Positions 7,549 to 38,656 of a stretch of DNA of 64,000 nucleotides are shown here, one piece after another. The notes under the pieces were generated by a model. The model saw nothing but the letters and a program-made list of their open reading frames with translations, was not told where the DNA came from and searched no databases. Position numbers and translations under genes: made by a program. The stretch's first letter is position 1. Each line of letters starts with the position of its first letter. Source of the stretch: an uncultured Chloroflexia bacterium (GTDB lineage: Bacteria > Chloroflexota > Dehalococcoidia > GIF9 > UBA5629); the NCBI GenBank assembly GCA_963751585.1, contig CAVVVB010000017.1, forward strand, positions 28,993-92,992, read 5' to 3'.

Positions 7549-7653
7549 GTGCAATGTGTCCACCAGTACTCTGTTTGTTAAACTTGTGATTAAATATAGG
7601 GTCGTTGAAATTGGTGCGCGTAAGTGGATAAAAAATAAGGAGGTTGAAAATAA

Positions 7654-14643: not shown

Positions 14644-14740
14644 GGTAGTTGGCTGCGGTATTTCTTAGCCAAAAACTGGCCTTTTCGAAAATGCGCATCC
14701 TTTAGAATATATTAAGTATAATTATAATACGGGAAATGAA

Positions 14741-15598
14741 TTGGGCGAATTCGTGTTCTTGGGGACAGGCGCTGCTTGTGGTGTACCTGCGTTCTATTGC
14801 GGATGCAGAGCCTGCCAAGAGGCACACAGTGAGTCGCGCTTTAGACGTACGCGCTGTGCGATAGTTCTGACCGGAGAAGAGGACCTCCTCGTTGATGCAC
14901 CACCGGAACTATCCACGCAACTGTCGCGTGAAGGCATCAAGAAGATAGATCATCTTGCGCTGACCCATTCCCACTATGACCACATAGGAGGCTTGGGTGA
15001 CCTCGAGTTCTATGTACGGTGGCACCGCAACAAAGCCTTGCCTGCCGTAATGAGTTATGAGACATGGACGCAACTGCAAACAATTTTTGGCTCAGTTGCT
15101 GAATGTCTGGACGTGAAACTAATTGAGCCGGGCCAAGTCGCTACATTTGGAGGGGTGCATCTTACAGCGCTGGAGGCAGCGCACTCACCGGGTACACTGG
15201 GTTTCCTCATCGAGAACAATGGTACGTCTATTGCTTACATACCCGACACAGGATCACTTCCTGCAAAAACGCGGGAATGCTTGCACGGCATAGATTATCT
15301 CGTACTGGACGCGACCTTTTGGGGACGTAACTGGTATCCCGGGCAGCACCTATCATTCGACGAAGCAATTGCAGTCGGACGGGAGCTTGAGGTACGAAAC
15401 CTTTATTTAACCCACCTGTCGATGCACTATGACACGCCGGTTACAAACCAAGAACTTGAAGAAGCTCTTAAACCGTACCAAAAACAGGTCCATCTGGCTT
15501 ATGACGGTTTGCGCTTTGCAGTCGGGCATCAAGAGCACGACCGAATAGTAACAATGAAGATTGAGCCTCCGGTTCAGATGAAGACGGAGTCGTCCTGA
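14741..15598 (+). CDS. MBL-fold metallo-hydrolase (PhnP/PqqB-like)
   Basis: FLGTGAACGVPAFYCGCRAC, HSHYDHIGG and a later AAHSPG. The start is uncertain: TTG at 14741 or in-frame GTG at 14753. Confidence 0.75.
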   Translation: MGEFVFLGTGAACGVPAFYCGCRACQEAHSESRFRRTRCAIVLTGEEDLLVDAPPELSTQLSREGIKKIDHLALTHSHYDHIGGLGDLEFYVRWHRNKALPAVMSYETWTQLQTIFGSVAECLDVKLIEPGQVATFGGVHLTALEAAHSPGTLGFLIENNGTSIAYIPDTGSLPAKTRECLHGIDYLVLDATFWGRNWYPGQHLSFDEAIAVGRELEVRNLYLTHLSMHYDTPVTNQELEEALKPYQKQVHLAYDGLRFAVGHQEHDRIVTMKIEPPVQMKTESS

Positions 15599-15622: not shown

Positions 15623-17842
15623 ATGGAAGAACAAGGGACGCAAATAAAGAAATCGGTGTGCTATTTCTGCCATCAGCAGTGCGGCATGTTGGTACACGTG
15701 AAGGGCGACAAAATTACAAAGGTTGAAGGAGACCCAGACCATCCCAGTCGGGGTGGGATGTGCCCGCGGGCCAACGTCTGGCTAAAGCATCACGATCATC
15801 CGGCACGTGTGAATTATCCCCTTAAGCGTGCTGGCGAACGTGGTGAAGGAAACTGGGAGCGGATCAGCTGGGAACAAGCGCTTGACGCAATTTCCAATAA
15901 GTTAGAGCAAATCCGCAAAGAGTCAGGTGCAGAATACGTGTGCAGTGCAGGAGGCACACAGCGTACTCATGACTGGGCCCGCCGTCGTTTTATGAACTTG
16001 TTTGGAAGTCCGAACGTTTTCAAGGTATCGTCTGTCTGCTGGATTCCAACCTTCATGATTGAGACAGCAATTTACGGCTGGTGCCCTTTCGACGTTGACC
16101 TACCCAAAAGTAAATGTGTTGTGTTGTGGGGGCATAACCCAGCCGGAGTCTATATGCCAGAGATACGCGGGTGGATGGACGTGAGAGAGAGCAACGGCAC
16201 CAAGATAATCGTAGTAGATCCAAGGATGACTGAAACGGCGGCGAAAGCAGATCTGTGGTTGCCGTTGCGGCCCGGCACTGACGCAGCACTGGCACTTTCC
16301 TGGCTCAATGTCATTATCTCCGAAGGGTTGTACGATCAGCACTTTGTTGAAAACTGCTGTTACGGCTGGGAAAAGCTTATAGAGCATGTAAAGCCTTACA
16401 CACCGGAGTGGGCAGAACCGATCACCTGGATTGATGCGGAAAAGATAAGGGCTGGTGCGCGCATGTATGCAACCTGCAAGCCGGGCAATATACAGTGGGG
16501 GGTTGCGGTGGATGAAATCGGGCCTCCCGGAGGAGCAGCTATGCATGCGCGGGCTTTGCTGCGAGCGGTTACCGGGAATCTCGACTGTCCCGGCGGGGAC
16601 ATGCTGGCTGGACCAGATCCAGTTATGATTACCGACGCCGAGATGGAGGCTAACGAATACATGACTGAGGAGCAGTGGGAGAAGCAGATTGGCTCTGACC
16701 GTTACATGATGTGCTCCTGGCCAGGATACAACAAAATTGCGGCGATTGCCAAAAGATTCTGGGGGAAACCACCGCCTGCTGAATGGATGTGCCTGGCACA
16801 TGCTCCCTCTGTTTTCGATGCAATGATTACCGGGGAGCCCTATAAGCCGCGAGCCTTATTGGTGCTTGCGAACAACACCCTTTCAGCCTATCCAGACACA
16901 AGAAAGGTATATAAGGCCTTGATGGAGTTTGAGCTATTAGTTGTTAAAGATTACTGGATAACACCAACAGCAATGCTCGCAGATTATGTATTGCCTACTG
17001 CGGACTGGCTAGAGCGCCCCACTATAACAAACACGTACGGCTGCAGTGATTTTTCTATTTGTTCGCAGCGTGCGATACAACCGACCTACGAGCGTAAGAC
17101 CGACTACCAGTTCTGGAAAGGATTAGCGGATCGGCTGGGACAATCTGAGTTCTGGCCCTGGGAAACCTTAGAAGAGGCAAAGTACTACCGTATTTACCCG
17201 CTGGGCCACAATGTAAGCAGTTACGATGAATACGTGGAGAAGGTACGGTTTTCCTTCCCGCCCAGAGAATACTACAAGTACGGCAAAATAGGATTCGGCA
17301 CTCCTTCGGGTCTGGTGGAACTCTACTCGAAGACGCTGGAACAACTTGGCTATGACCCGATGCCCAGATATGTGGGCCCGGCTGAAAATGAAGCTGATGA
17401 CCCTGAACTGGCCAAAGAATTCCCCCTAGTACTCATAGCCGGATCAGGTGTCATGCCATACTATCATTCCGAACACTTAAATATAAAGCCATTACGTTAT
17501 CTTCACCCGCAGCCTCGCATGCAGATAAATCCAAAAACAGCGAGAGACCTGGGTATTAAGAAGGGTGATTGGGCCTGGATCGAAACTCAACGGGGAAGGA
17601 TCATGCAGATAGCTGAACTAACCGAGACAATTCACCCGCGGACTATCTTCGTTGAGCGTGGCTGGTGGTTCCCTGAACGGGAGGCGAAAGAGCCGCGGCT
17701 CTACGATATATGGCAATCCAATTGTAACGTTTTGACTTCAGGGGATCCCAAACACTGTGATCCTATGAGCGGTAGCTGGGCAACCCGCGGCCTGCTTTGC
17801 AAGGTCTATAAAGTGGAAAAGGAGGACTTGCCCCATGACTAG
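15623..17842 (+). CDS. Mo/W-bisPGD oxidoreductase catalytic subunit, paralogue B (Psr/Dms-like, no Tat signal)
   Basis: N-terminal FS0 motif CYFCHQQCG...CPRA, VNYPLKR, candidate Cys ligand SSVCWIP, VVDPRMTETA and C-terminal GDWAWIET...LLCKVYKV. RBS GGAGG. Confidence 0.9.
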   Translation: MEEQGTQIKKSVCYFCHQQCGMLVHVKGDKITKVEGDPDHPSRGGMCPRANVWLKHHDHPARVNYPLKRAGERGEGNWERISWEQALDAISNKLEQIRKESGAEYVCSAGGTQRTHDWARRRFMNLFGSPNVFKVSSVCWIPTFMIETAIYGWCPFDVDLPKSKCVVLWGHNPAGVYMPEIRGWMDVRESNGTKIIVVDPRMTETAAKADLWLPLRPGTDAALALSWLNVIISEGLYDQHFVENCCYGWEKLIEHVKPYTPEWAEPITWIDAEKIRAGARMYATCKPGNIQWGVAVDEIGPPGGAAMHARALLRAVTGNLDCPGGDMLAGPDPVMITDAEMEANEYMTEEQWEKQIGSDRYMMCSWPGYNKIAAIAKRFWGKPPPAEWMCLAHAPSVFDAMITGEPYKPRALLVLANNTLSAYPDTRKVYKALMEFELLVVKDYWITPTAMLADYVLPTADWLERPTITNTYGCSDFSICSQRAIQPTYERKTDYQFWKGLADRLGQSEFWPWETLEEAKYYRIYPLGHNVSSYDEYVEKVRFSFPPREYYKYGKIGFGTPSGLVELYSKTLEQLGYDPMPRYVGPAENEADDPELAKEFPLVLIAGSGVMPYYHSEHLNIKPLRYLHPQPRMQINPKTARDLGIKKGDWAWIETQRGRIMQIAELTETIHPRTIFVERGWWFPEREAKEPRLYDIWQSNCNVLTSGDPKHCDPMSGSWATRGLLCKVYKVEKEDLPHD

Positions 17843-18380
17843 GTGGGCAATGGTTATCGACCTAAGGCGATGCGTGGGCTGTCAGGCCTGCACGGTCGCC
17901 TGCCAGCTAGGTAATGATCTACCGCTCGGCATGCTCTGGAACATTGTGACAACCGTCGGGCCAAAGGGGACTTTCCCTACTTTGAGTTATTATCACCTTC
18001 CACGTCCTTGTTTTCACTGTGATGATCCGCCCTGCGTACATTGCTGCCCCACGGGTGCATCTTCACAGCGTGAAGACGGAATCGTGATGGTGGACCCAGA
18101 CAAATGCATTGGTTGCGGCGCCTGCATTATGGCCTGTCCCTACGGTGCACGAACGCAGAATAAGGAGCTGGGGATAGTACAAAAGTGTACCTTCTGCGCC
18201 GATATCATCGGGAATGGCACAGAGCCCTATTGCGTGAGCACCTGCCATCAACGGGCACGCATATTTGGTGATATCAGTGATCGTGACAGCGAGATATATC
18301 GTCTTGTAAACGCTGATAACGCCATACAATTGATGCCCGAGTTAGGCACAGATCCCCATGTATATTATATTCAACCCTAG
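17835..18380 (+). CDS. Four-cluster Fe-S subunit (DmsB/PsrB/NrfC-like)
   Basis: CVGCQACTVAC, CFHCDDPPCVHCCP, CIGCGACIMACP and CTFC...CVSTC. Overlaps the alpha subunit stop by 8 nt. Confidence 0.9.
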   Translation: MTRWAMVIDLRRCVGCQACTVACQLGNDLPLGMLWNIVTTVGPKGTFPTLSYYHLPRPCFHCDDPPCVHCCPTGASSQREDGIVMVDPDKCIGCGACIMACPYGARTQNKELGIVQKCTFCADIIGNGTEPYCVSTCHQRARIFGDISDRDSEIYRLVNADNAIQLMPELGTDPHVYYIQP

Positions 18381-18390
18381 GGAGATCGAG

Positions 18391-19354
18391 ATGAAAAAAG
18401 AAATGACCTGGACTTGGCCGATTAGCAGCTATATATTTCTTGGAGGACTGGGAGGTGGTATCGCGATTGTCTCTGCTGTGGCTGATATATTTTGGGGTCT
18501 GGGGGGCATCTTCGCGATGGGTCCTTTCATCGCCGCGGTAATCATTGCCCTTGCTTCGGGGTTGCTCGTTTTTGAACTGGGCAGGCCCTTACGCTTCTGG
18601 CGTGTGATGGTGACAAAAAAGCTATCTGAAATGACTTTTGGTGCATGGATGCTTACACTGCTGATGATAGCTGGTCTAGTTTATAGTTCTTGCTGGCTGA
18701 CATTATTGCCATGGTACGGTCTGGCAGGGCTGCGTCACGCTTTCGCCTGGATTTGTCTGATATTAGGTATTGGGGTCGCTCTATACACTGGAGTTTTTCT
18801 CGGTACCATGAAATCACGCCCTTTCTGGAACGGTCCGGCTTTGCCTGTTCTTTTTCTTATTCTTAGTCTTTCCACCGGGCTTGCAGCACAGATACTCATC
18901 GTGAGTATCTGGCCTTGGGGAGGAAGTACAAGCCAGGCTGCAGATATCACGCCTCTTCTTGGAGTTGCCAACATTGGTTTTTTGGTTACTCGAGGGAATC
19001 ATCCTGTTCGTCTATGTCTTTATGATGCGTGCATCCGTAACCGTTCGCGCTTCAGGTCCGGCAGCAAGTTGGCTAAGCGGAAGCAGGGCATTGATTTTTT
19101 GGGTAGGAGCCGTAATTGCCGGAATTCTTGTGCCGATATTGTTATATGGCTTGCGGGTTCCGGCTACAGTCATAACAGCAGCCTTATTTGTTCTTGCAGG
19201 CGGAGCTATCCTCCGGTTCCTTGTCGTTTATACACAAGATCGGATAATGTTACCAGGAGAGGAAGAATTCCGTTACTGGCTACCAAAGGGTGATGAAAAA
19301 TTCCTTTCCAGCTGGAAGGAACGTCAGGAAACAGCCCAAATTAAGAGGAGATAA
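18391..19354 (+). pseudogene. NrfD/PsrC-like membrane anchor, interrupted by a +1 frameshift in a T6 run (or assembly indel)
   Basis: MKKEMTWTWPISSYIFLGGLGGG... is hydrophobic in frame 1 up to ...GVANIGF. Frame 2 continues WLLEGIILFVYVFMM...ILRFLVVY. The T6 run at 18978-18983 would restore the frame if it were T5. Confidence 0.8.
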
Positions 19355-19356
19355 TA

Positions 19357-20313
19357 GTGGTCATAGATTTTAAAGACAGGATAGAGGAGGTCAGCTCAGA
19401 ATTATTATTTTTTGATAAGCTTGAAACCTTGCAAGTTAATTTGGGGAATGTCTGCAACCAATCCTGTCGGCATTGTCACGTTGATGCAGGTCCTGCAGGC
19501 AATTATGTTATGTCCAAGGAGGTTATGAAGAACATAATCAGGTTCTTGCATAATCACTCGGATATCACAATCGATATCACAGGTGGATCCCCAGAGCTCT
19601 GTCCTGATTTCAAATTCTTAGTTGAAGAGGTTCGCCAATATGCTTCGCGGGTGATGGTCAGAACTAATCTGACGGTGTTGTTGGAGGAAGGGAAGGATTG
19701 GATTCCACGATGGTATAGAGATAACAGGATTATTGTTATCGCTTCAATGCCTTGTTACACGAAAAAAAACGTTGATGTGCAGAGGGGTGAGGGAGTTTTC
19801 GAAAAATGTGTTAAATCACTCAGAACACTAAACGATTTGGGCTATGGAGACTCTCTCGAGTTAAACTTAGCCTATAATCCACTGGAAGCCTATTTACCAG
19901 GTTCCCAAAAAGAACTAGAAGAGGCTTACAAAGAGGAACTTTTTCAACACTATGGACTCCGGTTCAACAAGTTGTTTACTATCACAAATGCCCCCATCGG
20001 AAGGTTTAAAAAACATCTTGAAACAAATCGGGAGGCAAACAAATATATCTCACTTCTGTCCGATAACTTCAACCCCAATGTCGTAAAGGATATTATGTGC
20101 CGGACCCTGATAAGTGTAGACTGGCGAGGCATATTATATAATTGTGATTTTAACTTGGCACTCGGGTTACCTATCAGAAATGAGTCAGGATATGCTGCGG
20201 ATGTTAATGGAATCGAAGATGTCATTAAGAACGGGTTCGAAATCGTAGTGGCCGAACATTGCTATGCTTGTACAGCTGGCACGGGATCTAGCTGTACAGG
20301 GACCTTGGCCTGA
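19357..20313 (+). CDS. ArsS-like radical SAM/Cys-rich-domain protein (TIGR04167-type)
   Basis: LQVNLGNVCNQSCRHCHVDAGP, DITGGSPELCPDF, RTNLTVLLEE, MPCYTKKNVDVQRGEGVF, ITNAPIGRF, MCRTLISVDWRGILYNCDFN and the C-terminal CYACTAGTGSSCTGTL. Confidence 0.8.
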   Translation: MVIDFKDRIEEVSSELLFFDKLETLQVNLGNVCNQSCRHCHVDAGPAGNYVMSKEVMKNIIRFLHNHSDITIDITGGSPELCPDFKFLVEEVRQYASRVMVRTNLTVLLEEGKDWIPRWYRDNRIIVIASMPCYTKKNVDVQRGEGVFEKCVKSLRTLNDLGYGDSLELNLAYNPLEAYLPGSQKELEEAYKEELFQHYGLRFNKLFTITNAPIGRFKKHLETNREANKYISLLSDNFNPNVVKDIMCRTLISVDWRGILYNCDFNLALGLPIRNESGYAADVNGIEDVIKNGFEIVVAEHCYACTAGTGSSCTGTLA

Positions 20314-20427
20314 TGCTAAGTAGACTATCCTATTACAGGATGGGTATTTGCTCTCGGTGTCACATTATGGCTCAGTGTCAAATTGTGCACAGTAAGGACA
20401 GTAGCGGTATTAAGACTGGTAAACAAT

Positions 20428-21606
20428 ATGAAACCACAAGTGGACAAACAAACCTATGATACGTTGGGTAACGTAGCTGCAGAATGCGCCGGGTGCGAAT
20501 TATTATGCAGTCAAGCTTGTGAGGTCTTGCAAGAGATAGCCCCCACAGCTCCGGGCGATGTTGCCAGACAGGTTCTGGGCGGGCAAGTAGATGAGGATAT
20601 ACGCAGATTTCTACTAAGGTGTTCATTATGCGGTCTATGTGTTAATTCCTGCCCTAAAAGCCTTGATATACCGCAAATGGTTATCGCTGCCCGCAGGGTT
20701 ATGGTGGACACTGGTATGACGGATACTGAGGTCTACCGTATCATGTGGGTGGATCATGACTGGAATGCCATTACCATTTTTCGCGACACATATCAGTTAA
20801 ACTTCGACAACCTGATTAAAGAAAAATGCTACACCCTGTTTATGCCGGGTTGCTCACTGGCTAACGAAGCACCTCAATTGGTATATACCACCATCGACTG
20901 GTTAGACGAGCAAGGAGGAGATAAAGCCGGTGTTATATTGATGTGCTGTGGTATGCCTCTGTTGGAAATGGGGCTAACGGAGAGGGCTAAAAGATATGAA
21001 AGGTCATTCTGGCAAAAGGTAAAAGAGACCGGTGCCAGAAGAGTGGTGGTGGCTTGTCCGAATTGTTTCCATCACTTAATTGCCAGTGAACTGAAAAAAG
21101 ACATAGAAGTGGTCTCTATGCTGGAACTAATGGCTAAATCCGGTTTACGTGTTCCGTCTGCAAAAGGCAAAAAAATTACTATTCACGATTCCTGTCCAAG
21201 CCGGTATGGTGAGATGGGCAAGTGGGCACGTCAGTTACTGGGTGATTATGAGATTACGGAAATGGAACACCACGGGAAGAACAGTTTGTGCTGTGGCTCT
21301 GGAGGTGTGGTGTCAATGGTGGATAAGGAGTTGCATGACAAACGGTCAAAAAGAAGATTGGAGGAATTTAAAAATACAGGCGCTGATATCTGCGCCACAT
21401 ATTGCATGGCATGTTGGCACACCTTGTCTCAGAAAGCGGTGCAGGGCGACGTGCGATTTATTCTTGAGCTTGTATTCGATCAGTTTATAGACCATGCAGA
21501 ATATCAGAATAAGTTGCAGGCTATGTGGGAGGGTGAGTGGGGGGTCTATAACGACTTTCGGCTTCGAAACTCGCAAATGCTCGACGAATGCAGAAAGGAA
21601 AAATGA
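20428..21606 (+). CDS. Fe-S oxidoreductase with two CCG domains (HdrD/GlpC/LutA-like)
   Basis: CSLCGLCVNSCP ferredoxin motif, then MPGCSL...CCGMPL and HDSCPSR...CCGSGG. The start is taken at MKPQVDK. Confidence 0.75.
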   Translation: MKPQVDKQTYDTLGNVAAECAGCELLCSQACEVLQEIAPTAPGDVARQVLGGQVDEDIRRFLLRCSLCGLCVNSCPKSLDIPQMVIAARRVMVDTGMTDTEVYRIMWVDHDWNAITIFRDTYQLNFDNLIKEKCYTLFMPGCSLANEAPQLVYTTIDWLDEQGGDKAGVILMCCGMPLLEMGLTERAKRYERSFWQKVKETGARRVVVACPNCFHHLIASELKKDIEVVSMLELMAKSGLRVPSAKGKKITIHDSCPSRYGEMGKWARQLLGDYEITEMEHHGKNSLCCGSGGVVSMVDKELHDKRSKRRLEEFKNTGADICATYCMACWHTLSQKAVQGDVRFILELVFDQFIDHAEYQNKLQAMWEGEWGVYNDFRLRNSQMLDECRKEK

Positions 21607-21607
21607 A

Positions 21608-22939
21608 ATGGCCTCTCTAGTTCCAGCCGGCCCTGTTATTGATCAAACAGAGAGCGTATGTCCACATTGCCTGAAGACCATACCCGCAACCATTTATGAG
21701 AATGGTGGCAGCGTCTACATGGGCAAAACGTGCCCCGAGCATGGCCACTGTGATGTTTATCTCTGGCCGGATGCGAATCATTACCTGTGGTTTACCAACT
21801 TTGCCTTTCCATCGAAATCACGTACGCCGCAGACCGAATGCTCAGATGGTTGTCCGCGAGATTGCGGGCTATGCCCGAACCACAAGAGAGGCATCACACT
21901 GGCTGAAATCGAGGTGACCTGGCGTTGTAACCAATCCTGCCGAGTCTGCTTTATGTCGGCGAGCGATAGTCTCCCCGATCCTTCGCTGGAGACTATATAT
22001 GATATGCTACAAACCGTCCAGCGCTACGATGGAGGACATGCCTCCCTGCAGATAACAGGAGGTGAGCCGACAGTGCGCGCTGATCTACCCGATATCATCA
22101 GGCTTGCCCGTCAAACCGGGTTCAGCACTGTCGAGATCAACACCAACGGCTTAGTCATTGGGAGAGACCGTGACTTCCTGTGTACGCTGAAAGAGGCTGG
22201 CCTTACCAATATCTATCTGCAGTTTGATGGCATCACGCCTGAGGTAACCCGTATCTTAAGGGGAGAAGGCCTATTCGATTGCAAACTGCAGGCGATTGAA
22301 AATTGCCGCCTGGAAGATATGAAGGTCATTCTGGCACCGACTATTATAAAGGAGATAAACGACGGCCAGATGGGCGGTCTCATTGATTTTTGCATGAACA
22401 ATATGGACGTGATTAGTGGTCTGGCGATTCAGCCCGCCTTTCTGTCTGGCCGATTTGATGTGGAAATGCAGCAACGCCTTTCGCTTGGTGATATCGTAGC
22501 CATGATAGAGGAGCAAACTGGCGGTAAGATCGCAGCGCGCAACTTCTGGCCCTTAAGCTGCATACATCCCCTCTGTGCCTGTTCAACTTATCTTATCGGA
22601 GAGGGCGAAAACTATACCACGCTTACAAGTAACATAACCGAAACTGACTACACAAAATATTTCAATGAAAGTAGCCCGCAAGGTTCGGTATTCGCCGACG
22701 TATTTGCAAATATGCATCATGAGAATAACACCCCCCAAGGGCTTGGTGTACTCATCATGAGCTATATGGATGCCTGGACGCTAGATGTGAAACGGCTGCG
22801 GGAATGCAACCTGGCAGTCACCGTCAGGGATGGGCGCTCCATACCATTTTGTGCGTACCACTTAACTGCCACCTCAGGCCGAAGGTTATATCCACTGGGC
22901 CAAAGGAGACCGTCTGCCATTGATTGCACGCAGGTCTAA
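21608..22939 (+). CDS. Radical SAM protein with N-terminal Zn-ribbon, MJ0619/Tes (GDGT-MAS)-like family
   Basis: CPHCLKTIPATIYENGGSVYMGKTCPEHG, CPRDCGLCPNHK and the radical SAM motif CNQSCRVC. The ATG lies 1 nt after the upstream stop. The family call is from memory of the motif pattern. Confidence 0.65.
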   Translation: MASLVPAGPVIDQTESVCPHCLKTIPATIYENGGSVYMGKTCPEHGHCDVYLWPDANHYLWFTNFAFPSKSRTPQTECSDGCPRDCGLCPNHKRGITLAEIEVTWRCNQSCRVCFMSASDSLPDPSLETIYDMLQTVQRYDGGHASLQITGGEPTVRADLPDIIRLARQTGFSTVEINTNGLVIGRDRDFLCTLKEAGLTNIYLQFDGITPEVTRILRGEGLFDCKLQAIENCRLEDMKVILAPTIIKEINDGQMGGLIDFCMNNMDVISGLAIQPAFLSGRFDVEMQQRLSLGDIVAMIEEQTGGKIAARNFWPLSCIHPLCACSTYLIGEGENYTTLTSNITETDYTKYFNESSPQGSVFADVFANMHHENNTPQGLGVLIMSYMDAWTLDVKRLRECNLAVTVRDGRSIPFCAYHLTATSGRRLYPLGQRRPSAIDCTQV

Positions 22940-25094
22940 TTGCACCTTATGCGGGTACCTATGTGGCATCCTGGCTTACTGCAGTGAAGATGGTAATCTA
23001 GTCAGGCTTGAGCCCGATAGTACGCGGTTCCCTTATAATGCTTCAATTATGAAAAAATGCGCTCGCTTTCACGAAACGAGTGCTATCCTAGATCATCCTG
23101 ATCGTATAAATTATCCAGTTAAACGCGTGGGTGAACGAGGCTCGGGCAAATGGCAAAGGGTGAGCTGGGACGAAGCGCTAGATGACATCGCGGGCAGAGT
23201 GCAAGACCTCAAGAAGCAGTATGGTGCTGAAACTCTGGCTACCTGCATTGGGGCTCCCCATTCCATATACTGGCCAATGCACCGTTTTATGAACTTATTC
23301 GGCAGCCCCAATAACATCGGTATCGGGCATATTTGCTGGAATCCAGCAATCTGGGTACATAGTCTCACATATGGGTGGCCTATCAAGCCTGAGCTGGACC
23401 CCGACAGAACCAACTGCGTAATCCTATGGGGGATCAATCCCGCCGAGTCTGATAACTCCCTGTTCTGGGAAACAATATTTAGATACAGCCAGTCCGGCAA
23501 GCCTCTTATCGTGATTGACCCGCGTTATACAAAGACTGCTGCAAAAGCGAGTACGTGGTTACCTGCCAGACCGGGAACAGATGTGGCACTGGCACTGGCA
23601 CTGATAAACGTTATTATAAAAGAGGAACTTTATGATAAAGGATTTGTTAACAAATGGTGCTCCGGATTCGAAGAGCTTAAAAACAATGTGGCCGGATACT
23701 CCCCCAATAGCGTATCTTCTATTACCGGTATCCACAGCCAAATTATAATCGAAATAGCCCGTCTTTTTGCTGAGAACAGACCGGCAACGATATTCAGCGG
23801 TCTGGGTATCGACCAGAGCGGGTGTAATTGTACTCAGGCTTTACGTGCTCTGGCAATCCTACGGGCTATTACTGGCAATGTAGATAAGCCTGGAGCCTGT
23901 CACCTTTGTGAGCAGCCTGACTTTATATCAGAAGCTGAGTTGGAGATGAGCAGCACCCTGCCCGCATCGTGCACAAAGAAACAACTATGTCAGAACGTAT
24001 TCCCACTCCTCACATATGATGGCTATAAGGCACTTACTCGCTACACTCTGTTGCATGGGAAAAGGTTACCCGTCCGTTATTTAACGTCGGCGCACCCCTT
24101 TCTTGCCTGGCAAGCCATGTTGACTGGGAATCCATATCCTATAAAAGCTCTTATAGTTATGGCAAGTAATCCACTACTTACCCAGGCTAACACCAATATG
24201 GTCTACCAGGCGCTTAAAAGCCTCGATCTTATTGTAGTACTGGATCAGTTTTTAACGCCTACCGCTATGCTTGCTGATTACGTACTTCCAAGCGCAGGAA
24301 GTCTTGAACAAAGTATGATTCAGATGGATGGAGGGATTTCCAACATAGCGTATGGCGGCAGCCGTGCTATTGCTCCGATGTATGAAAGAATGACAGATTA
24401 TTCCTTCTGGTATGAGCTTGGACAGCGCTGTGGGCAAACAGAGTACTGGCTATGGAAGACGGCGGAGGAAGCGTTCGATGAAGTCTTCTCCCGTGCCGGG
24501 TTAACATGGGAAGAATTTTGCGGCACAGGTATTTATTCGCCCAATAACTCTTATTATAAATACGAAAGGGAAGGGTTTGCCACGCCGAGCGGGAAAATAG
24601 AACTCCGTTCCATTCTGCTGGAACAGCTTGGATACAACCCTCTGCCCTATTTTACTCCTGCTCAAAACAACACCTCTGACTATCCTCTTACTCTGGTAAC
24701 AGGGGTGAGGCACCAACCATATTACGCTACCGAGTTCCGAAATATACAAAAATTTAGAAGGATACATCCAAATCCCATTGCGGAAATGGATAAGATAACC
24801 GCAACCCGGTTCGGAGTGCAGGAAGGGGACCATGTATGGATAGAGACACCAAAGGGGCGTATCAAACAGGTTGTCGGGCTTGCAAACATGCTACCAGGGC
24901 TGGTATGTATCGAATTTGGATGGTGGTATCCTGAATTGCTGCCTACAGAGCCGGCCCTGGGTGGCCTGTGGGAATCTAATGCCAATGTATTGACTGGTTC
25001 AGATATTGAGTCGTGTGACCCGATACTGGGGCAATGGACGTATCGCACTCTACAATGTAAAATCTACAAGGTTGACGAGGCAAGAGGATGCTAG
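22920..25094 (+). CDS. Mo/W-bisPGD oxidoreductase catalytic subunit, paralogue C (no Tat signal, no cognate beta/gamma)
   Basis: TTG start. CTLCGYLCG...C, INYPVKR, GHICWNP, VIDPRYTKTA and GDHVWIET...LQCKIYKV. Overlaps the upstream gene by 20 nt. Confidence 0.88.
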   Translation: MIARRSNCTLCGYLCGILAYCSEDGNLVRLEPDSTRFPYNASIMKKCARFHETSAILDHPDRINYPVKRVGERGSGKWQRVSWDEALDDIAGRVQDLKKQYGAETLATCIGAPHSIYWPMHRFMNLFGSPNNIGIGHICWNPAIWVHSLTYGWPIKPELDPDRTNCVILWGINPAESDNSLFWETIFRYSQSGKPLIVIDPRYTKTAAKASTWLPARPGTDVALALALINVIIKEELYDKGFVNKWCSGFEELKNNVAGYSPNSVSSITGIHSQIIIEIARLFAENRPATIFSGLGIDQSGCNCTQALRALAILRAITGNVDKPGACHLCEQPDFISEAELEMSSTLPASCTKKQLCQNVFPLLTYDGYKALTRYTLLHGKRLPVRYLTSAHPFLAWQAMLTGNPYPIKALIVMASNPLLTQANTNMVYQALKSLDLIVVLDQFLTPTAMLADYVLPSAGSLEQSMIQMDGGISNIAYGGSRAIAPMYERMTDYSFWYELGQRCGQTEYWLWKTAEEAFDEVFSRAGLTWEEFCGTGIYSPNNSYYKYEREGFATPSGKIELRSILLEQLGYNPLPYFTPAQNNTSDYPLTLVTGVRHQPYYATEFRNIQKFRRIHPNPIAEMDKITATRFGVQEGDHVWIETPKGRIKQVVGLANMLPGLVCIEFGWWYPELLPTEPALGGLWESNANVLTGSDIESCDPILGQWTYRTLQCKIYKVDEARGC

Positions 25095-25546
25095 TGTTAC
25101 GCAAGGCAAGAAAAAGCGACCATTCCGCTCTTGTTGAACTTCTCGCAAAAGCTAACATGCGTTACGTCGAGCCAATTAGGTCCTATACGATCGCACTTGA
25201 AGGACCAATTATTGCCGGTTGCGCAAGGTTGGAGGACCATGGTGATATCGTAATGCTAAGGCCACTTGTCGTAGCCGAAAAGTACCGGAGAAAGAGACTG
25301 GGCAAGCATATACTCAAGAAAATTATGCCAGATGATAAACCTACTATTGTTGCTGCACGCGGTGAGGCAATCCCGTTCTATGTCGCCATCGGATTCAACA
25401 AGACTGGCTGGCATGCTGTATCCGATGAACAACGAGACGAATGCAAGCTATGCCCTGAACGAAAAGTGTGCAATCCACAACCCATGATATACGTTCCAGA
25501 CCGTTGCGAAAATGAATATAGTATTAATCAATCCCAGAACGGTTAA
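25088..25546 (+). CDS. GNAT-family N-acetyltransferase
   Basis: 152 aa. The motif-A-like stretch is LVVAEKYRRKRLGKHILKK. Overlaps the upstream stop by 7 nt. Confidence 0.65.
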   Translation: MLVLRKARKSDHSALVELLAKANMRYVEPIRSYTIALEGPIIAGCARLEDHGDIVMLRPLVVAEKYRRKRLGKHILKKIMPDDKPTIVAARGEAIPFYVAIGFNKTGWHAVSDEQRDECKLCPERKVCNPQPMIYVPDRCENEYSINQSQNG

Positions 25547-26888
25547 AGCGAGCACTTTCCCTGGAGGAGAGTTCTTTAGCTGCACCGCACCCAATATGGG
25601 ATTAGCTTATCTCGCTGCGGTTCTGGAACAGGAAAACCACGACGTTAAGATAATAGACGCGCAGGCGTTGGGGCTTGACGACGAAGGGTTGAAAAGAAGC
25701 CTTTCAGATTTAGAGCCGGAAATAATCGGGGTTACTGCTACAACAACGACTATATATGACGGCTTTAACGCTGTCAGCATAGGCAAGGAATTATATCCCC
25801 GGGCGTTCACTGTCATGGGTGGTATCCATGCTTCTTATCTGCCGTTTGAGACGTTGCAGGAATGCTCTCAATTAGATGCCGTATGTATTGGCGAGAGTGA
25901 AGAAACCGTAGTTGAACTTACTTGTGCCTTAGAGAATGGAATGGATGAATTGGCTCGCGTTAAAGGAATTGCCTATAGGTGGGAGAACAAGATAAGAAAA
26001 ACGCCATCGAGAATTTCTCTCCCTGATTTGGATGCCTTGCCGCTTCCGGCCAGGCATCTCCTTCCCATGGAGTATTATGCCTCCGGAGGGCACCCGCACA
26101 GGACTGCTTCGATCGTCTCTAGCCGCGGCTGTCCCTTCAAATGTGCGTTCTGTGCTACGCCGTTTATCGCGGGCCGCAGATATCGAGCTAGGAGTGCTGA
26201 GAGTATATTGAATGAAATAGAACAGATAGTATCAAAATATGAAATGAATTCATTTGAATTTGTCGACGATCTGTTCACACTGGATAATAGACGTGTTGAA
26301 GCCATTTGCAGCGGGATCCTTGAGCGCGGTATGAAAGTACGCTGGTCGTGCAGCAGCCGGGCAGATACAGTCAATCCATGTTTGCTCGCCACTATGGCAG
26401 ATGCCGGTTGCGGATGCATTTTCTATGGGATCGAATCCGGCTCTCAGCGAATACTGGACTGTATGCGGAAGGGGGAAAACCTTAAGCAAATAGAGGAAGC
26501 TGTACGATATACGAGAGAAGCGGGGATACAAACATGGGGGTTTTTCATTCTTGGCTTCCCAGAGGAAACCAGAGAGGATATCGAAAGGACCATCAGATTT
26601 GCGTGCGAACTGGATTTAGATTTTGTGGAATTCTTTATAGCATCAGCTTTCCCCGGCAGTGCTCTTTATGAACGTGCAAGAAGGGATGATCTGCTTTTGA
26701 TTGAAGGCTGGTCGGATATCTCGTATGGAAAAGCAAACATAAAGAACCCTGTCCTTTTTCCACAGGACGTGCAGGAATATCTGATTAAAGCTTACCGAGA
26801 TTTCTATACGTCGTCACGGGTGATTTCCAGATTACTAAGAGAGGGAAAGACTCAATTTCTGTCTGAAATCAAGTCCAAGACGGGATAA
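25512..26888 (+). CDS. B12-binding-domain radical SAM protein (class B)
   Basis: N-terminal cobalamin-binding-like domain (IVLINP...GLAYLAAVLEQENHDVKIID...VMGGIHAS), then SSRGCPFKCAFC. Overlaps the GNAT gene by 35 nt. Confidence 0.85.
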   Translation: MNIVLINPRTVKASTFPGGEFFSCTAPNMGLAYLAAVLEQENHDVKIIDAQALGLDDEGLKRSLSDLEPEIIGVTATTTTIYDGFNAVSIGKELYPRAFTVMGGIHASYLPFETLQECSQLDAVCIGESEETVVELTCALENGMDELARVKGIAYRWENKIRKTPSRISLPDLDALPLPARHLLPMEYYASGGHPHRTASIVSSRGCPFKCAFCATPFIAGRRYRARSAESILNEIEQIVSKYEMNSFEFVDDLFTLDNRRVEAICSGILERGMKVRWSCSSRADTVNPCLLATMADAGCGCIFYGIESGSQRILDCMRKGENLKQIEEAVRYTREAGIQTWGFFILGFPEETREDIERTIRFACELDLDFVEFFIASAFPGSALYERARRDDLLLIEGWSDISYGKANIKNPVLFPQDVQEYLIKAYRDFYTSSRVISRLLREGKTQFLSEIKSKTG

Positions 26889-27056
26889 GGGAAGCTTACA
26901 GGATTCATGTTGACAAATGTCAGCACTACCTATGCTCCAGTAGAACTGGGTATCAAAACCGGACGGCTGGGAACATTCCAGTTCTCGACGGATGCTGCTT
27001 ATGTTCCTCCTTTCGCCAGCCGTCGAGACTTGCTAACCTGAGATGAAACGAAAGTA

Positions 27057-27905
27057 ATGAGAAACCACGCATTATCATTATTTACCAAATCGCCCCAGCC
27101 GGGAACGACCAAGACGCGTCTAACTCGGAAGTACGGAGGCTCACTTAGTGACGAGGAAGCGGCCGATTTTTACAGGGCAACAATGCTTGACGTTGCGGCT
27201 GCTGCGTTTCGCGCACTGGAGCTATGCCGTAAGACGGCGGCTGATGAAAACAGGATGGATAAATATGACTTTTGCGTCTCGTGTTCGCCTGAAAGCGAAA
27301 AACCCAGACTCGAGAAGATCTTCCAGGAAGAGTGCTCAAATGAGGCCAATATTCGCTATATAGTTGATAACGGGCAGAATTTTAATGAGCATTTCAATAA
27401 CCACTACCAGCAATTATTCCGGCAAGGATACCATTCAGTTGTATGTATCGGCGGTGATTTGCCTACTATATCGCCTGAATTTATACATAACGCGTTCCAA
27501 TGGCTTGATTATATGGGAACAGGGTCGGAAAGAGGCGCAATGGTAATTGCCCCCTGCCAGGCAGCCGGTGTATCGCTGGTTGGATTAACGGCAGCCGCAC
27601 CAATGGATTTTGCCGGTGTATTCTACAATATGCAGGGTGTACCGGCTCTGGAAGCCATAATCAAGACAGCTGCAGAGCGACAGATACCTACATCAGTGCT
27701 TGAAACCCAGGCTGATGTGGATACCATGGAAGATCTAGCACATACTATTGCACTAATAAACGCGCTGAAGTATGCTAGCCTTTTTTCACCTGGTAAGTTC
27801 GTCCCCGCGCGCACGCTCGCATGGATACAAGAGCGGGGGCTTGTTGTACATACTCCGCCAAATGAAGAACACGACCCAAGAGGCACAATTGATGGTCAAG
27901 ATTGA
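27057..27905 (+). CDS. DUF2064 / TIGR04282-like nucleotidyl/glycosyl-transferase-like protein
   Basis: The N-terminal LSLFTKSPQPGTTKTRLT matches the DUF2064 signature (aK.P.pG.vKTRL) as I recall it. Confidence 0.6.
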   Translation: MRNHALSLFTKSPQPGTTKTRLTRKYGGSLSDEEAADFYRATMLDVAAAAFRALELCRKTAADENRMDKYDFCVSCSPESEKPRLEKIFQEECSNEANIRYIVDNGQNFNEHFNNHYQQLFRQGYHSVVCIGGDLPTISPEFIHNAFQWLDYMGTGSERGAMVIAPCQAAGVSLVGLTAAAPMDFAGVFYNMQGVPALEAIIKTAAERQIPTSVLETQADVDTMEDLAHTIALINALKYASLFSPGKFVPARTLAWIQERGLVVHTPPNEEHDPRGTIDGQD

Positions 27906-28875
27906 AATAGACATAGAACGATGCAGGGGCTGCGGTACTTGCGCGGACTTTTGCCCGACATCTGTTTTTGAGCTTTCGGAAATAAACGGACACAAGGTCA
28001 GTTCCGCTGCACGTATTGACGATTGCTGCGCCTGTAACACCTGCGCAGGGCAATGTCCGCAGGGGGCGATACTACTGACGGATGCGATTTCAGAGAGGGA
28101 ATGCCTGGACAGCATCAGTACCGGAGCTCCTGCTACCCCTCTGGATAACGAGGAGCGTGAAAGCTATGGCAAGCTTTCGAAATTACTTGTGGATATATTG
28201 GGCTTGCGTTGGAGTCCTGTTGCCGTTACCCTTATATCCAAAGACACAGCACTACCCAACGTTCCGCTGCCACGCAGCCGGTTGCGCTATTGCCAGGCAT
28301 TGATGATGGCTCGCCGGGGCAAGACTTTGCTGATGCCGCCTCAAGTTCATGCCTGCCCCGATGGTATGTATATCCTGGGACTAACCAGTGCTTCTCCCAA
28401 GCTTGCCACTGGGGAAATATATATCAAGTTTGGCAAACTGGCGTCTATTGAAGCGGCGCGCCAGATGATTGCCGAGCGTCCTCATCTGCCTGAAAAATCG
28501 GTAAAGGCCACGCTTGTATCACCACTGGAAAAGGCTGTTATAAAACCGGATGTTGTAGTGGTTGTGGCTCCGCCGGAAAGCATGATGTGGTTATGTATGG
28601 CATCTTCTTTTTATACGGGTAAGCGTTTTGAGTTCAAGGTAAGTGGTTATAACTCACAATGCATAGAAGCTACGCTGTACCCTTATACAACAGGCGATAT
28701 AAACATATCTCTGGGGTGCTATGGCTGCCGCGCTGCTTCAGATATAGGTGACGATATGATGTTTATGGGGATACCTTTAGCTAAATTAGGCTCGTTGGTA
28801 AGTGGACTGGAGCAATTGGGTAAAAAGGCTATTCCAGACTCTCGCATGAAAATCTATTTGCCGCCGTTGGTTTAA
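27892..28875 (+). CDS. 2x[4Fe-4S] ferredoxin domain fused to a DUF169 domain
   Basis: CRGCGTCADFCP and CCACNTCAGQCP, then DUF169-like WSPVAVTL...RYCQALMMAR...ACPDG...GCYGCR. The start at MVKIEID overlaps the upstream gene by 14 nt. Confidence 0.65.
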   Translation: MVKIEIDIERCRGCGTCADFCPTSVFELSEINGHKVSSAARIDDCCACNTCAGQCPQGAILLTDAISERECLDSISTGAPATPLDNEERESYGKLSKLLVDILGLRWSPVAVTLISKDTALPNVPLPRSRLRYCQALMMARRGKTLLMPPQVHACPDGMYILGLTSASPKLATGEIYIKFGKLASIEAARQMIAERPHLPEKSVKATLVSPLEKAVIKPDVVVVVAPPESMMWLCMASSFYTGKRFEFKVSGYNSQCIEATLYPYTTGDINISLGCYGCRAASDIGDDMMFMGIPLAKLGSLVSGLEQLGKKAIPDSRMKIYLPPLV

Positions 28876-29070: not shown

Positions 29071-29115
29071 TGCCTTCCAAGCAGGCTGTCGCGGGTTCGA
29101 GTCCCGTCTCCCGCT
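29071..29115 (+). repeat. attR-like core: orphan copy of the 3' 45 nt of tRNA-Gly
   Basis: Identical to 2400-2444. The upstream sequence is not tRNA-like, and TTTTTT follows instead of CCA. Confidence 0.85.
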
Positions 29116-29878: not shown

Positions 29879-30081
29879 ATGAAGACTGACCGTTCCCTGG
29901 AGGTGAGACGTGACAAAGATTGCAGATTCCCATTATCATCGCGGTTCGAGAAAGTCAACCAGATGCACCTGCATAGCATCGACCTGACGTCACATCCTTT
30001 GCATTTCTTCTAACGAAAGGTTATTCTACTACATAAATTCGCTGCTGGCACTCAATGATGAACTGTAATGAAGGAGGCAAG

Positions 30082-31335
30082 ATGAGGAAAATAGCGATCG
30101 CAACGATTACCGCGGCAATCCTGACAGCTGTACTTGTGGGTGGTTGCGCCGGACCTGCCGTAACTCCCCCACCATCAACACCGACACCGTCTGCACCCGC
30201 AGCACAACAGACACTAAATATCGGAGTGGTAAGTCCTTTAACCGGACCGATGGCAGATCTTGGTACCAACATGAAGAACGGGATACTGATGGCCATCGAT
30301 GACCAAAATCAGCAGGGCGGCGTTACCATCGGCGGGCAGAAATATGTGCTAAATGGCATCGTTCGTGACAGCAAGGCCGATCTTGTTGTCTCCAAAAGTA
30401 TTGCAGAGGAGCTAGTATTTGACAAGAAAGTGATAGCCATTGGCGGGCCTTTTATGGGGGATGCAATAGGTGTTCAAACTGTTACCGAACCGAACAAGGT
30501 CATAGCCTTCTTTCTTGTCGCCATAATTAAAGGGATAGTTGGCCCAAATAAGCCATATTCTTTCTTCTACGGTCAAGGCCCGCTTTCAGAAATGCTCCTG
30601 ACAAGCGCGTATACGCAGAAATTCTACCCCGAAGCCAAAACTATTGTCTCCATCATAGTTGACGTAGCCGACCTTCCGGTCTTCGCCGATGCCGCAAAAT
30701 CCATGGGAGAACGATACGGCTTAAACTGGCTGGGTTATGAGAGGTGCCCCATAACCACGACCGACTTCACTCCAATAATTTCACGTGTGCTTGAGAAGAA
30801 ACCGGATATCGTAGATACCAGCAACGTGGGGGGCGATATGGGAGGCCTGTGCGCTTCCTTAATAAAGCAGTTGCGGCAGGCGGGCTTCAACGGCATTATT
30901 TGGGTACCTGCTCCTCCTCCCCCAGGCGTATTTCAGGAGGTGATTCCGAAAGAACAATTAAACAAGATTGTCGATCTTTCCATAAATCTGGACAGTCCTA
31001 TAGTAGCACAGGCCTACCGGGATTTGGGCAAGCGGTATGAGAAGGAATACAACCAGACTCCGGCTCCAGTGATTGCCATGGCATACGACCCGGTCAAGAG
31101 TTTTTTCCAGTTTCTCAACACTCAGAATACCCTGGACACCACGGCATGGATGGAGGGATTTGCGAACTACCACTGGCAGGGAATATGGGGCAAGGAAGCG
31201 TTTTGGGTAGGCAAGCCACTATATGGAATTAACCGCATCCTTCTTGGATCCCGCTGGGTCTCGGAATGGACAAATGGCCAACTCGATACCAAGTGGGAGG
31301 CGCCTCTTCCTCTAGAACTGTGGGTAGAGCAATAG
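30082..31335 (+). CDS. ABC-type (LivK/PBP1-like) solute-binding lipoprotein, paralogue 1
   Basis: RBS GAAGGAGG. Lipobox LVGG|CAGP and a Pro/Thr linker, followed by LNIGVVSPLTGPMADLG...AIDDQNQQGGVTIGGQKY. Confidence 0.85.
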   Translation: MRKIAIATITAAILTAVLVGGCAGPAVTPPPSTPTPSAPAAQQTLNIGVVSPLTGPMADLGTNMKNGILMAIDDQNQQGGVTIGGQKYVLNGIVRDSKADLVVSKSIAEELVFDKKVIAIGGPFMGDAIGVQTVTEPNKVIAFFLVAIIKGIVGPNKPYSFFYGQGPLSEMLLTSAYTQKFYPEAKTIVSIIVDVADLPVFADAAKSMGERYGLNWLGYERCPITTTDFTPIISRVLEKKPDIVDTSNVGGDMGGLCASLIKQLRQAGFNGIIWVPAPPPPGVFQEVIPKEQLNKIVDLSINLDSPIVAQAYRDLGKRYEKEYNQTPAPVIAMAYDPVKSFFQFLNTQNTLDTTAWMEGFANYHWQGIWGKEAFWVGKPLYGINRILLGSRWVSEWTNGQLDTKWEAPLPLELWVEQ

Positions 31336-31372
31336 CGGAACCCCTGATCTTGTTTTAAGGAGGAATTTGTTG

Positions 31373-38560: not shown

Positions 38561-38656
38561 CGGAGGTAAGTAGAGGAGGACTTGCTATGTGAGTGTTTCC
38601 TGAAAATGCATATGCTATGTAGGAGGCATTAAGATGTTGAAGGAGGTAAATTTTTG

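Follow-up and report, generated by a model that had tools for sequence, protein, structure and literature searches.

We analysed a 64,000-nt stretch of contig CAVVVB010000017.1 (assembly GCA_963751585.1) from an uncultured Chloroflexia bacterium, hereafter the window. At positions 15623-28875 it carries a cluster in which two molybdenum/tungsten (Mo/W) proteins of the bis-pyranopterin guanine dinucleotide (bisPGD) type, here termed alpha-B and alpha-C, are encoded together with radical S-adenosylmethionine (SAM) enzymes, iron-sulfur proteins and other accessory proteins, and which an original prediction, made from the DNA letters, had described as an eleven-gene candidate pathway. Our analyses show a conserved, horizontally distributed operon around a radical SAM enzyme resembling the archaeal Tes/GDGT-MAS and a predicted cytoplasmic Mo/W protein of the acetylene hydratase clade. 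The window locus is one lineage's version of this widespread, uncharacterised operon of strict anaerobes.

Gene content and junctions of the operon

The genes and remnants of the cluster are as follows.

14741-15598, +, MBL-fold hydrolase, PhnP / RNase Z-like (Pfam Lactamase_B_2, 105 bits)
15623-17842, +, alpha-B, Mo/W-bisPGD catalytic subunit (Pfam Molybdop_Fe4S4, Molybdopterin, Molydop_binding)
17835-18380, +, beta, four-cluster ferredoxin-type electron-transfer subunit without signal peptide (Pfam Fer4_11)
18391-19354, +, NrfD/PsrC-type membrane anchor, frameshifted (Pfam NrfD, residues 10-198 of the frame-1 reading frame only)
19357-20313, +, ArsS-family radical SAM enzyme (TIGR04167, 400 bits, cut-off 300; DUF3641, 170 bits)
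20416-20459, +, 3' remnant of a BioB-like radical SAM gene, encoding ...GKQYETTSGQTN and overlapping the start of the CCG gene
20428-21606, +, HdrD-like CCG protein (Pfam CCG in two stretches, Fer4_17)
21608-22939, +, Tes/GDGT-MAS-like radical SAM enzyme (PDB 7tol; Pfam Zn_ribbon_HMPTM)
22920-25094, +, alpha-C, second Mo/W-bisPGD protein (PDB 2e7z, 393 bits)
25088-25546, +, GNAT (Pfam Acetyltransf_7/10/1)
25512-26888, +, B12-binding radical SAM enzyme, B12-rSAM (Pfam B12-binding, Radical_SAM)
27057-27905, +, DUF2064 protein with a CofC / TIGR04282-like nucleotidyl- or glycosyl-transferase fold (Pfam DUF2064, 49 bits)
27892-28875, +, 2x[4Fe-4S] ferredoxin-DUF169 protein (Fd-DUF169), the last gene (Pfam DUF169, 194 bits)

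All eleven open reading frames (ORFs) called earlier, from alpha-B to Fd-DUF169, were recovered on the plus strand at the same positions, and Pfam and NCBIfam searches agreed with each of the domain calls. The junctions between them (-8, +10, +2, 114, +1, -20, -7, -35, 168 and -14 nt) are exact with the starts 18391, 20428, 21608 and 27892, the last three of which are backed by gene lengths in close relatives; indeed, Fd-DUF169 homologues of 322-343 aa are consistent with the start at 27892. The extent of the unit had been drawn too short, leaving out the MBL-fold gene, which ends 24 nt upstream of alpha-B and is preceded by a promoter-like site at 14701-14728. The operon thus probably begins one gene earlier, with the MBL-fold gene as its first. 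Its product matched the NCBIfam models for PhnP (129 bits) and the 'GPMC system MBL' (123 bits), both under cut-off, and the matches of the beta subunit to TtrB/DsrO/ArrB-like models were likewise under their cut-offs. No molybdenum-cofactor (Moco) or other riboswitch was found in the operon by Rfam, and the 114-nt and 168-nt gaps, considered as sites for a small conserved peptide gene of the ribosomally synthesised and post-translationally modified kind, held nothing conserved; the 114-nt gap contains the remnant of the displaced gene.

The membrane anchor is encoded in two frames, the N-terminal two thirds in frame 1 (18391-18993) and the C-terminal third in frame 2 (18986-19354), as a result of a one-base shift at a T6 run near 18986, and the '+2' junction relies on the second of these frames. 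An intact 309-aa NrfD orthologue matched the locus by tblastn as two high-scoring segment pairs, in frames 1 and 2, and the C-terminus is 88% identical to that of the nearest relative (L081). Two other genes of the window are each split by a single-base frameshift, namely a further bisPGD gene, alpha-A (10889-13166, shift near 11733), and a 3-hydroxyacyl-CoA dehydrogenase gene (1376-2297), and two of the three shifts lie at short T runs. Because these two genes are split likewise, assembly indels are as likely as pseudogenes, and the three single-base splits together suggest assembly indels rather than three independent pseudogenes.

Conservation across genomes and the variable slot

Aligned homologues of the central Tes-like enzyme were used as the seed to scan one genome per GTDB species. 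This identified 282 confirmed loci, the best 80 of which were fetched with 10-kb flanks and examined, and gene counts were obtained by tblastn with the window proteins. As many of these 80 loci are truncated contigs and represent the best 80 of 282, the frequencies are lower bounds. A survey by ORF clustering is misled by shadow ORFs in the high-GC Coriobacteriia and finds too few genes there, and the tblastn matrix was therefore used for the counts. The loci are spread over five phyla: Chloroflexota (Dehalococcoidia closest, at 61-72% identity, and also Anaerolineae), Desulfobacterota, Bacillota (Desulfitobacterium, Desulfosporosinus, Negativicutes), Coriobacteriia (Gordonibacter, Adlercreutzia, Slackia, Raoultibacter) and Acidobacteriota.

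The invariant heart of the cluster is the Tes-like enzyme adjoining alpha-C. Their genes overlap by 20 nt in the window, and probably are translationally coupled through this overlap, and they share a locus in 66-75 of the 80 cases (alpha-C orthologues in 66, or 75 with any alpha-C-like match). The beta subunit was found in 57 loci, DUF2064 in 55, Fd-DUF169 in 50, NrfD in 48, GNAT in 46, the CCG protein in 45 and alpha-B in 44, while the MBL-fold gene was syntenic upstream of alpha-B in 32-35. The order common to the loci is MBL, alpha-B, beta, NrfD, CCG, Tes-like enzyme, alpha-C, GNAT, DUF2064 and Fd-DUF169. No further conserved family occurred in more than 16 of the 80 loci, and the 16-locus family is a divergent GNAT. 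This order recurs in five phyla and the unit is truly operon-like, and the 80-locus neighbourhood survey found the core co-conserved far beyond chance, which contradicts the random juxtaposition that the original prediction had named as one of its refutations.

Each phylum has its own version of the order. Chloroflexota have MBL, alpha-B, beta, NrfD, a slot that may hold a radical SAM gene, CCG, the Tes-like gene, alpha-C, sometimes GNAT, DUF2064 and Fd-DUF169. Desulfobacterota follow this order, but a different alpha (with the FS0 motif CxxCPWHC) and a QmoC/TmcC-like anchor, beside CCG, replace alpha-B and NrfD; a membrane redox link is thus kept even without orthology. In Coriobacteriia the order is permuted to alpha-C, DUF2064, Tes-like gene, Fd-DUF169 and GNAT, and Bacillota have mostly only alpha-B, beta, NrfD, the Tes-like gene and alpha-C, followed by MoeA, MoaA, MoaC, Mog and MobB; in the operon of the non-Bacillota groups, CCG, Fd-DUF169 and the MBL-fold gene are found as well. 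In-frame fusions of alpha-C occur in five independent loci, with GNAT in four (L007:6350-8998, L010:11136-13943, L016:11253-13871 and L082:10812-13394) and with GNAT and DUF2064 in the fifth (L003:6570-10091). Regulators of the sigma-54/PAS type and MFS, TRAP or SSF transporters lie near the cluster in some loci.

The eleven-gene set as originally proposed therefore holds for its core only: ArsS was found in none of the 80 loci and B12-rSAM in four, plus three close relatives, and the set shrinks in Bacillota. Neither do the three radical SAM classes form one set, the Tes-like enzyme alone belonging to the core. In the nearest relative, L081, whose Tes-like enzyme, alpha-C and CCG protein are 92-94% identical to those of the window, the slot between NrfD and CCG is occupied by a 363-aa BioB-like radical SAM enzyme, also found there in L082 and L002. 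The DNA alignment of the two loci is near-identical to about position 19324 and again from about 20416, delimiting a swapped ArsS cassette at about 19325-20415. The last twelve codons of the displaced BioB-like gene survive at 20416-20459, and a 48-aa ORF (20313-20459) has at its end the C-terminal residues of the L081 enzyme. Two other assemblies, L084 and L086, also have an ArsS gene in this slot, at only 65-67% identity. The L086 locus shares 92% identity with the window in alpha-B, but only 52-58% in NrfD and 66% in ArsS, the other cluster genes being about 82-92% identical; because NrfD and ArsS diverge amid these closely similar genes, the NrfD-slot segment appears mosaic, with recombination confined to it. 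ArsS is thus an accessory swapped into a variable slot, not a core component. It has a Cys-rich C-terminus (...HCYACTAGTGSSCTG) and is a Cys form, not a selenoprotein; selenoprotein read-through was rejected for both ArsS and the Tes-like enzyme, which are complete Cys forms. A canonical ArsS locus (L085) reads GT2, DUF3047, ArsS, DUF2064, disulfide oxidoreductase and methyltransferase, and the recurrence of the ArsS-DUF2064 partnership may explain the recruitment of ArsS here. B12-rSAM is a lineage-specific accessory, which occurs in L062 and L081-L083, of the same lineage as the window, and also in a paralogous Adlercreutzia/Slackia cluster; its best NCBIfam matches, HpnJ and BchE, reached about 220 bits and fell far short of their cut-offs.

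Protein families of the core and the genomic island

The Tes-like enzyme matched PDB 7tol over its full length (309 bits, phmmer). Its AlphaFold model (mean predicted local distance difference test, pLDDT, 85) superposed on the same structure by Foldseek with a template-modelling (TM) score of 0.83, at 34% identity and E 8.5e-40, the next-best structural match being MoaA (TM 0.46). Invariant residues are C18, C21, C42, H45, C82, C86, C89, H92, C107, C111, C114, C323, C400 and C415, and M384 aligns with Met439 of GDGT-MAS. Compared with the metal-site motifs described for GDGT-MAS (PMC9433317), all four are kept: the rubredoxin CX2CX20CX2H site, the [Fe4S4]N cluster with its His, the radical SAM (RS) cluster and the [Fe4S4]C cluster with its Met. 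The enzyme scored under the NCBIfam cut-offs for both TrsS (NF045646, 395 vs 490) and Tes (NF045702, 354 vs 450). A function as pterin methylase, the old annotation of MJ0619 and the origin of the Pfam name Zn_ribbon_HMPTM, was ruled out since MJ0619 has been re-assigned as GDGT-MAS (PMC9433317).

Acetylene hydratase (2e7z) is the best PDB match, over full length, of both alpha-B (442 bits) and alpha-C (393 bits), and both score far higher to it than to ArrA. Their FS0 motifs are CYFCHQQC in alpha-B and CTLCGYLC in alpha-C, and both keep the C-x2-C-x3-C...C pattern and the Cys aligned with Cys141, the metal ligand of acetylene hydratase. The motif C-[YF]-F-C-H was found in 34 of 34 alpha-B orthologues and C-x-x-C-G-Y in 54 of 54 alpha-C orthologues, the position of the catalytic Asp13 being His in all of the former and Gly in all of the latter. 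This replacement ruled out acetylene hydratase function for either protein; because the catalytic Asp is missing, they are not acetylene hydratases, and hydration of the acetylene type is unlikely. No twin-arginine motif was detected in the alpha-B or alpha-C orthologues, in which 7-24 residues precede the first Cys, and alpha-B, beta and NrfD carry no export signal. By sequence, the two alphas would be cytoplasmic Mo/W-bisPGD proteins of the acetylene hydratase / catechol dehydroxylase clade, the catechol dehydroxylases of Eggerthellaceae (Dadh, Dodh and Cldh) being characterised neighbours of acetylene hydratase (PMC7028382).

Among the other partners, the CCG protein has two CCG domains after an N-terminal 2x[4Fe-4S] domain, as in HdrD, and best matched the C-terminal half of NF045663 (171 bits vs cut-off 530). 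The GNAT family has a C-terminal tail, C-x2-C-x6-C, usually followed by x-P-x-P, whose full motif was found in 28 of 33 members; four of the other five keep a near-variant three-Cys tail, and L061 is without one. The tail is also present inside the alpha-C fusion proteins, is unusual for a GNAT and suggests a putative metal or cluster site. The DUF2064 protein scored 92 bits with TIGR04282 (cut-off 134) and 33 bits with CofC, and matched PDB 3cgx weakly. The model of Fd-DUF169 (pLDDT 83) matched PDB structures by Foldseek over the ferredoxin domain only, and no relative of DUF169, in sequence or in fold, was found among solved structures. None of the curated NCBIfam equivalogs reaches its cut-off for the core proteins.

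The cluster lies on a segment bounded by a tRNA gene, identified with ARAGORN and Rfam.

2373-2447, +, tRNA-Gly(UCC), the sole tRNA found by ARAGORN (Rfam tRNA, 69.7 bits)
2400-2444, 3' half of tRNA-Gly, left member of the 45-nt direct repeat pair (putative attL of the 26.7-kb island)
29071-29115, +, copy of the 3' half of tRNA-Gly, 45 nt, putative attR (100% identity to 2400-2444, repeat search)

The right repeat lies 196 nt past the last gene, chance matches of this kind being expected 0 times, and the tRNA-bounded island proposed earlier thus stands as a 26.7-kb segment flanked by the 45-nt tRNA-Gly repeat. The ORFs scanned from 2447 to 29115 gave no integrase domain, no compositional shift was seen (G+C 0.43-0.52 inside the island and 0.47-0.53 outside), and no tRNA repeat was found beside the cluster in the other loci.

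Within the island, a small Fe-S protein of 111 aa (13168-13503) is encoded after alpha-A, the layout of soluble Gordonibacter-type catechol dehydroxylases (PMC7028382), and alpha-A orthologues have a small Fe-S partner, sometimes with an MFS transporter, in L022, L026, L032, L052 and L078. Just after a PAS histidine kinase / OmpR-type regulator pair (4712-7355), and before the ORF that follows, an 11-nt unit (ACCAAACTGTA) is repeated four times in tandem (7499-7553), a possible regulator-binding array. Two paralogous 150-aa ORFs (7654-8106 and 10343-10795; 78% DNA identity over 300 nt), which have no Pfam match and are thioredoxin-fold-like by eye, without CxxC, lie directly upstream of reductase genes, one of the old yellow enzyme (OYE) type (8214-10202) and the other alpha-A (10889).

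Elsewhere in the window there are an ArsA-type ATPase gene (43740-44939, minus strand), two AOR-family tungsten/molybdenum enzyme genes (45281-47440; 48953-50857, minus strand), a fourth bisPGD alpha running off the window end (63252-64000) and at least five Peripla_BP_6 binding proteins (30055-32617, 38654-39898, 41770-43014, 52577-53824), with no adjoining ABC permease or ATPase gene in the annotated parts of the window. The Rfam 'pan' motif (RF01749) was found at 54709-54792 on the plus strand (46.8 bits vs gathering 36.2), upstream of a Peptidase_S58 gene.

Proposed chemistry, alternatives and related systems

Our preferred interpretation, which we hold at slightly less than even confidence, is a pathway in which a hydrophobic or aromatic substrate would undergo radical C-H activation or C-C coupling together with Mo/W-dependent oxygen-atom transfer. 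The chemistry of the original prediction, radical activation with Mo/W oxo-transfer or hydration, is plausible, apart from hydration of the acetylene type. With 5'-deoxyadenosyl radicals and with its C-terminal cluster, the Tes-like enzyme would activate an unreactive sp3 carbon of what would probably be a hydrophobic or aromatic small molecule, and a C-C bond may be formed in this step. Alpha-C, in complex with GNAT and DUF2064, and alpha-B would carry out Mo/W oxygen-atom transfer, either dehydroxylation or hydroxylation and not acetylene hydration; alpha-B, beta and NrfD would connect to the menaquinone pool, passing electrons to or from it at the cytoplasmic face, and the CCG protein and Fd-DUF169 may deliver or withdraw low-potential electrons. 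The window also holds amidohydrolase_2 decarboxylase-type genes, CoA-transferases and the OYE-type reductase, besides the two AOR-family enzymes and many Peripla_BP_6 binding proteins, and this context leans towards aromatic or organic-acid metabolism, although it proves nothing; the first three kinds of gene, alpha-A with its small Fe-S partner, and the regulators and transporters near some loci are consistent with a substrate-inducible redox pathway. In a more specific form, the Tes-like enzyme and alpha-C would constitute a two-component catalytic system, in which radical C(sp3) activation or C-C coupling is mechanistically tied to the Mo/W-bisPGD centre and GNAT and DUF2064 are integral subunits; this we regard as possible, and advance tentatively.

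Several points weigh against the preferred interpretation. No gene points to a substrate, and by sequence comparison the alphas appear tied to catechol dehydroxylases only through their shared proximity to acetylene hydratase. Stoichiometric use of SAM is costly for catabolism, and characterised Tes chemistry acts on membrane lipids, not on aromatics. The membrane anchor is frameshifted in the window, and CCG, GNAT, DUF2064 and Fd-DUF169 are mostly missing within 10 kb in Bacillota. Moreover, two phyla have genes for molybdenum-cofactor biosynthesis on the flanks of the cluster, and in the Coriobacteriales loci L049 and L080 the genes for DUF2064, the Tes-like enzyme, Fd-DUF169 and GNAT occur without an alpha within reach, so that for these a trans-acting maturation module fits at least as well. 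According to this alternative, the Tes-like enzyme together with DUF2064, GNAT, Fd-DUF169 and possibly the MBL-fold and CCG proteins would mature alpha-C and its relatives in the acetylene hydratase clade, either by modifying them post-translationally or by providing a modified pyranopterin dinucleotide, through its synthesis or its insertion. It would account for the constant adjacency of an alpha to the Tes-like gene, for the fusions of alpha-C to GNAT and to the CofC/MobA-fold DUF2064, for the four-gene sets of L049 and L080, for the MoaA, MoeA, MoaC, MobB, Mog, MOSC and FmdE-like genes flanking the cluster in Bacillota, Desulfobacterota and some Chloroflexota, and for MoaA being the next-best structural match of the Tes-like enzyme; NCBIfam moreover holds a precedent in TIGR04317, a radical SAM maturase of tungsten-cofactor oxidoreductases, matched weakly here. 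Nevertheless, the crystal structure of acetylene hydratase shows an ordinary bis-molybdopterin guanine dinucleotide cofactor, the Tes-like enzyme has the complete catalytic equipment of Tes, down to the C-terminal cluster used for C-C coupling, Bacillota keep this enzyme and alpha-C without the other accessory genes nearby, and no TorD/NarJ-type chaperone is present; we consider maturation a rather unlikely alternative.

A pathway for membrane-spanning or branched lipids, for example of the branched glycerol dialkyl glycerol tetraether (brGDGT) type, in which the Tes-like enzyme would couple tails, B12-rSAM would methylate and the other proteins would deal with head groups and redox steps, seems improbable. 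Gut Coriobacteriia carrying the cluster are, to our knowledge, not known to make spanning lipids. The Tes-like enzyme is homologous to GDGT-MAS over its full length and has all of the metal sites, the complex is membrane-anchored and the best matches of B12-rSAM include HpnJ and a lipid-biosynthesis B12-rSAM family; bacterial Tes homologues of Chloroflexota, Desulfobacterota and Acidobacteriota have, moreover, been proposed as brGDGT synthases (PMC8941075, PMC11868695). However, the 80 loci share no conserved gene of lipid biosynthesis (PlsA/Ger, acyltransferase, CDP-alcohol transferase), no proposed tetraether route has a role for two Mo/W oxidoreductases, B12-rSAM is rare, and the Tes-like enzyme falls under the Tes cut-off (354 vs 450), with about 60-80 GDGT-MAS residues missing. 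Far less probable still is an organoarsenical or metalloid pathway, which would transform arsenic species by means of ArsS, a TIGR04282-like DUF2064 protein, a GNAT resembling ArsN2 and Mo enzymes of the Arr/Psr kind. ArsS is above its curated cut-off and is paired with a DUF2064 protein in canonical loci such as L085, GNAT and B12-rSAM have some similarity to ArsN2 and ArsL, and the ArsA ATPase gene lies at 43740-44939; yet ArsS occurs in 0 of the 80 loci and here took the place of a BioB-like enzyme, the DUF2064 protein is under the TIGR04282 cut-off (92 vs 134), the matches of GNAT to ArsN2 (30 vs 125 bits) and of B12-rSAM to ArsL (61 vs 450) are weak, the alphas are far nearer to acetylene hydratase than to ArrA, and neither ArsM, Acr3 nor ArsR is encoded in the cluster. 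Finally, chance juxtaposition of unrelated genes or dead remnants on a degraded island, as the frameshifts in NrfD and alpha-A and the lack of a remaining integrase might suggest, is close to negligible given an order kept in five phyla with in-frame fusions and the other ten genes intact with overlapping junctions, while the third split gene, lying outside the island, indicates assembly indels.

The claim that no characterised pathway has this combination was supported, as no NCBIfam equivalog exceeded its cut-off for the core and no description of the cluster was found in the literature searched. We know of no characterised system that joins a Tes-type radical SAM enzyme to Mo/W-bisPGD enzymes, and none was found in that literature. 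The pairing is conserved also in human-gut Coriobacteriia (Gordonibacter, Adlercreutzia, Slackia), and the clade of the alphas includes the catechol dehydroxylases, whose substrates are dopamine and polyphenols of the diet. For that clade, the conserved accessory set could be a maturation factor missing so far, or else a new pathway. In earlier work, Tes homologues of bacteria were tentatively tied to brGDGT synthesis without reference to a Mo/W context, and they are counted in metagenomes as possible brGDGT producers (PMC8941075, PMC11868695), a reading against which the genomic context cautions for at least this clade. If the two-component system of the Tes-like enzyme and alpha-C were true, it would be a transformation new to anaerobic metabolism, and a large clade of 'bacterial Tes homologues' read as brGDGT markers would have another job. 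Cultured strains carry the cluster, which makes it experimentally accessible.

With GDGT-MAS/Tes (MJ0619, archaeal) the Tes-like enzyme shares the fold, the rubredoxin-type site, the N-terminal CX3CX2C with His, the RS CX3CX2C and the C-terminal Cys with the counterpart of the labile Met439; it is, in contrast, bacterial, shorter (443 vs 506 aa, the missing residues lying between the core and the C-terminal cluster) and encoded beside a Mo/W-bisPGD protein instead of lipid genes. TrsS (NF045646) and its partner NF045663 are the best NCBIfam matches of the Tes-like enzyme and of the CCG protein, which suggests that the two form a pairing paralogous to the TrsS neighbourhood, although the scores stay under the cut-offs, the Tes-like enzyme has no selenocysteine and the pyridine-nucleotide-disulfide oxidoreductase half of NF045663 is missing from the CCG protein. 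The canonical ArsS locus (TIGR04167, TIGR04282 and TIGR04283, 'arsenosugar biosynthesis') resembles the window cluster in having an above-cut-off ArsS and a DUF2064-family protein in one operon, whereas the cluster has no GT2 (TIGR04283-type) or methyltransferase gene and its DUF2064 belongs to another subfamily.

As regards the Mo/W proteins, both alphas share with the acetylene hydratase of Pelobacter acetylenicus the bisPGD fold, the Cys4 [4Fe-4S] site, the Cys metal ligand and the absence of a Tat signal. Acetylene hydratase is, however, a soluble monomer that has no beta or gamma partner, whereas alpha-B precedes beta and NrfD, and alpha-C, itself without a beta subunit, is fused or adjacent to other proteins. 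The likeness to catechol dehydroxylases extends to the carriers of the cluster in Gordonibacter, Adlercreutzia, Desulfitobacterium and Geobacter relatives and, for the Gordonibacter-type enzymes, to the lack of a Tat signal. The Dadh type, in contrast, is exported by a Tat signal as an alpha-beta-anchor complex (PMC7028382), while alpha-B with beta and NrfD would face the cytoplasm, and alpha-C lacks both the small Fe-S partner and the MFS neighbour of the Dodh type. No radical SAM partner has been reported for the characterised acetylene hydratase or catechol dehydroxylases. The sulfite dehydrogenase SoeABC is a cytoplasm-facing three-subunit Mo enzyme with an NrfD-type anchor. Alpha-B, beta and NrfD share this make-up of alpha, beta and anchor and likewise lack export signals, so that their chemistry would be linked to quinones and take place on the cytoplasmic side, although SoeABC has a different alpha clade and a different substrate and is without radical SAM, CCG or DUF169 partners. 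We group the cluster with the Mo/W-bisPGD oxidoreductase operons.

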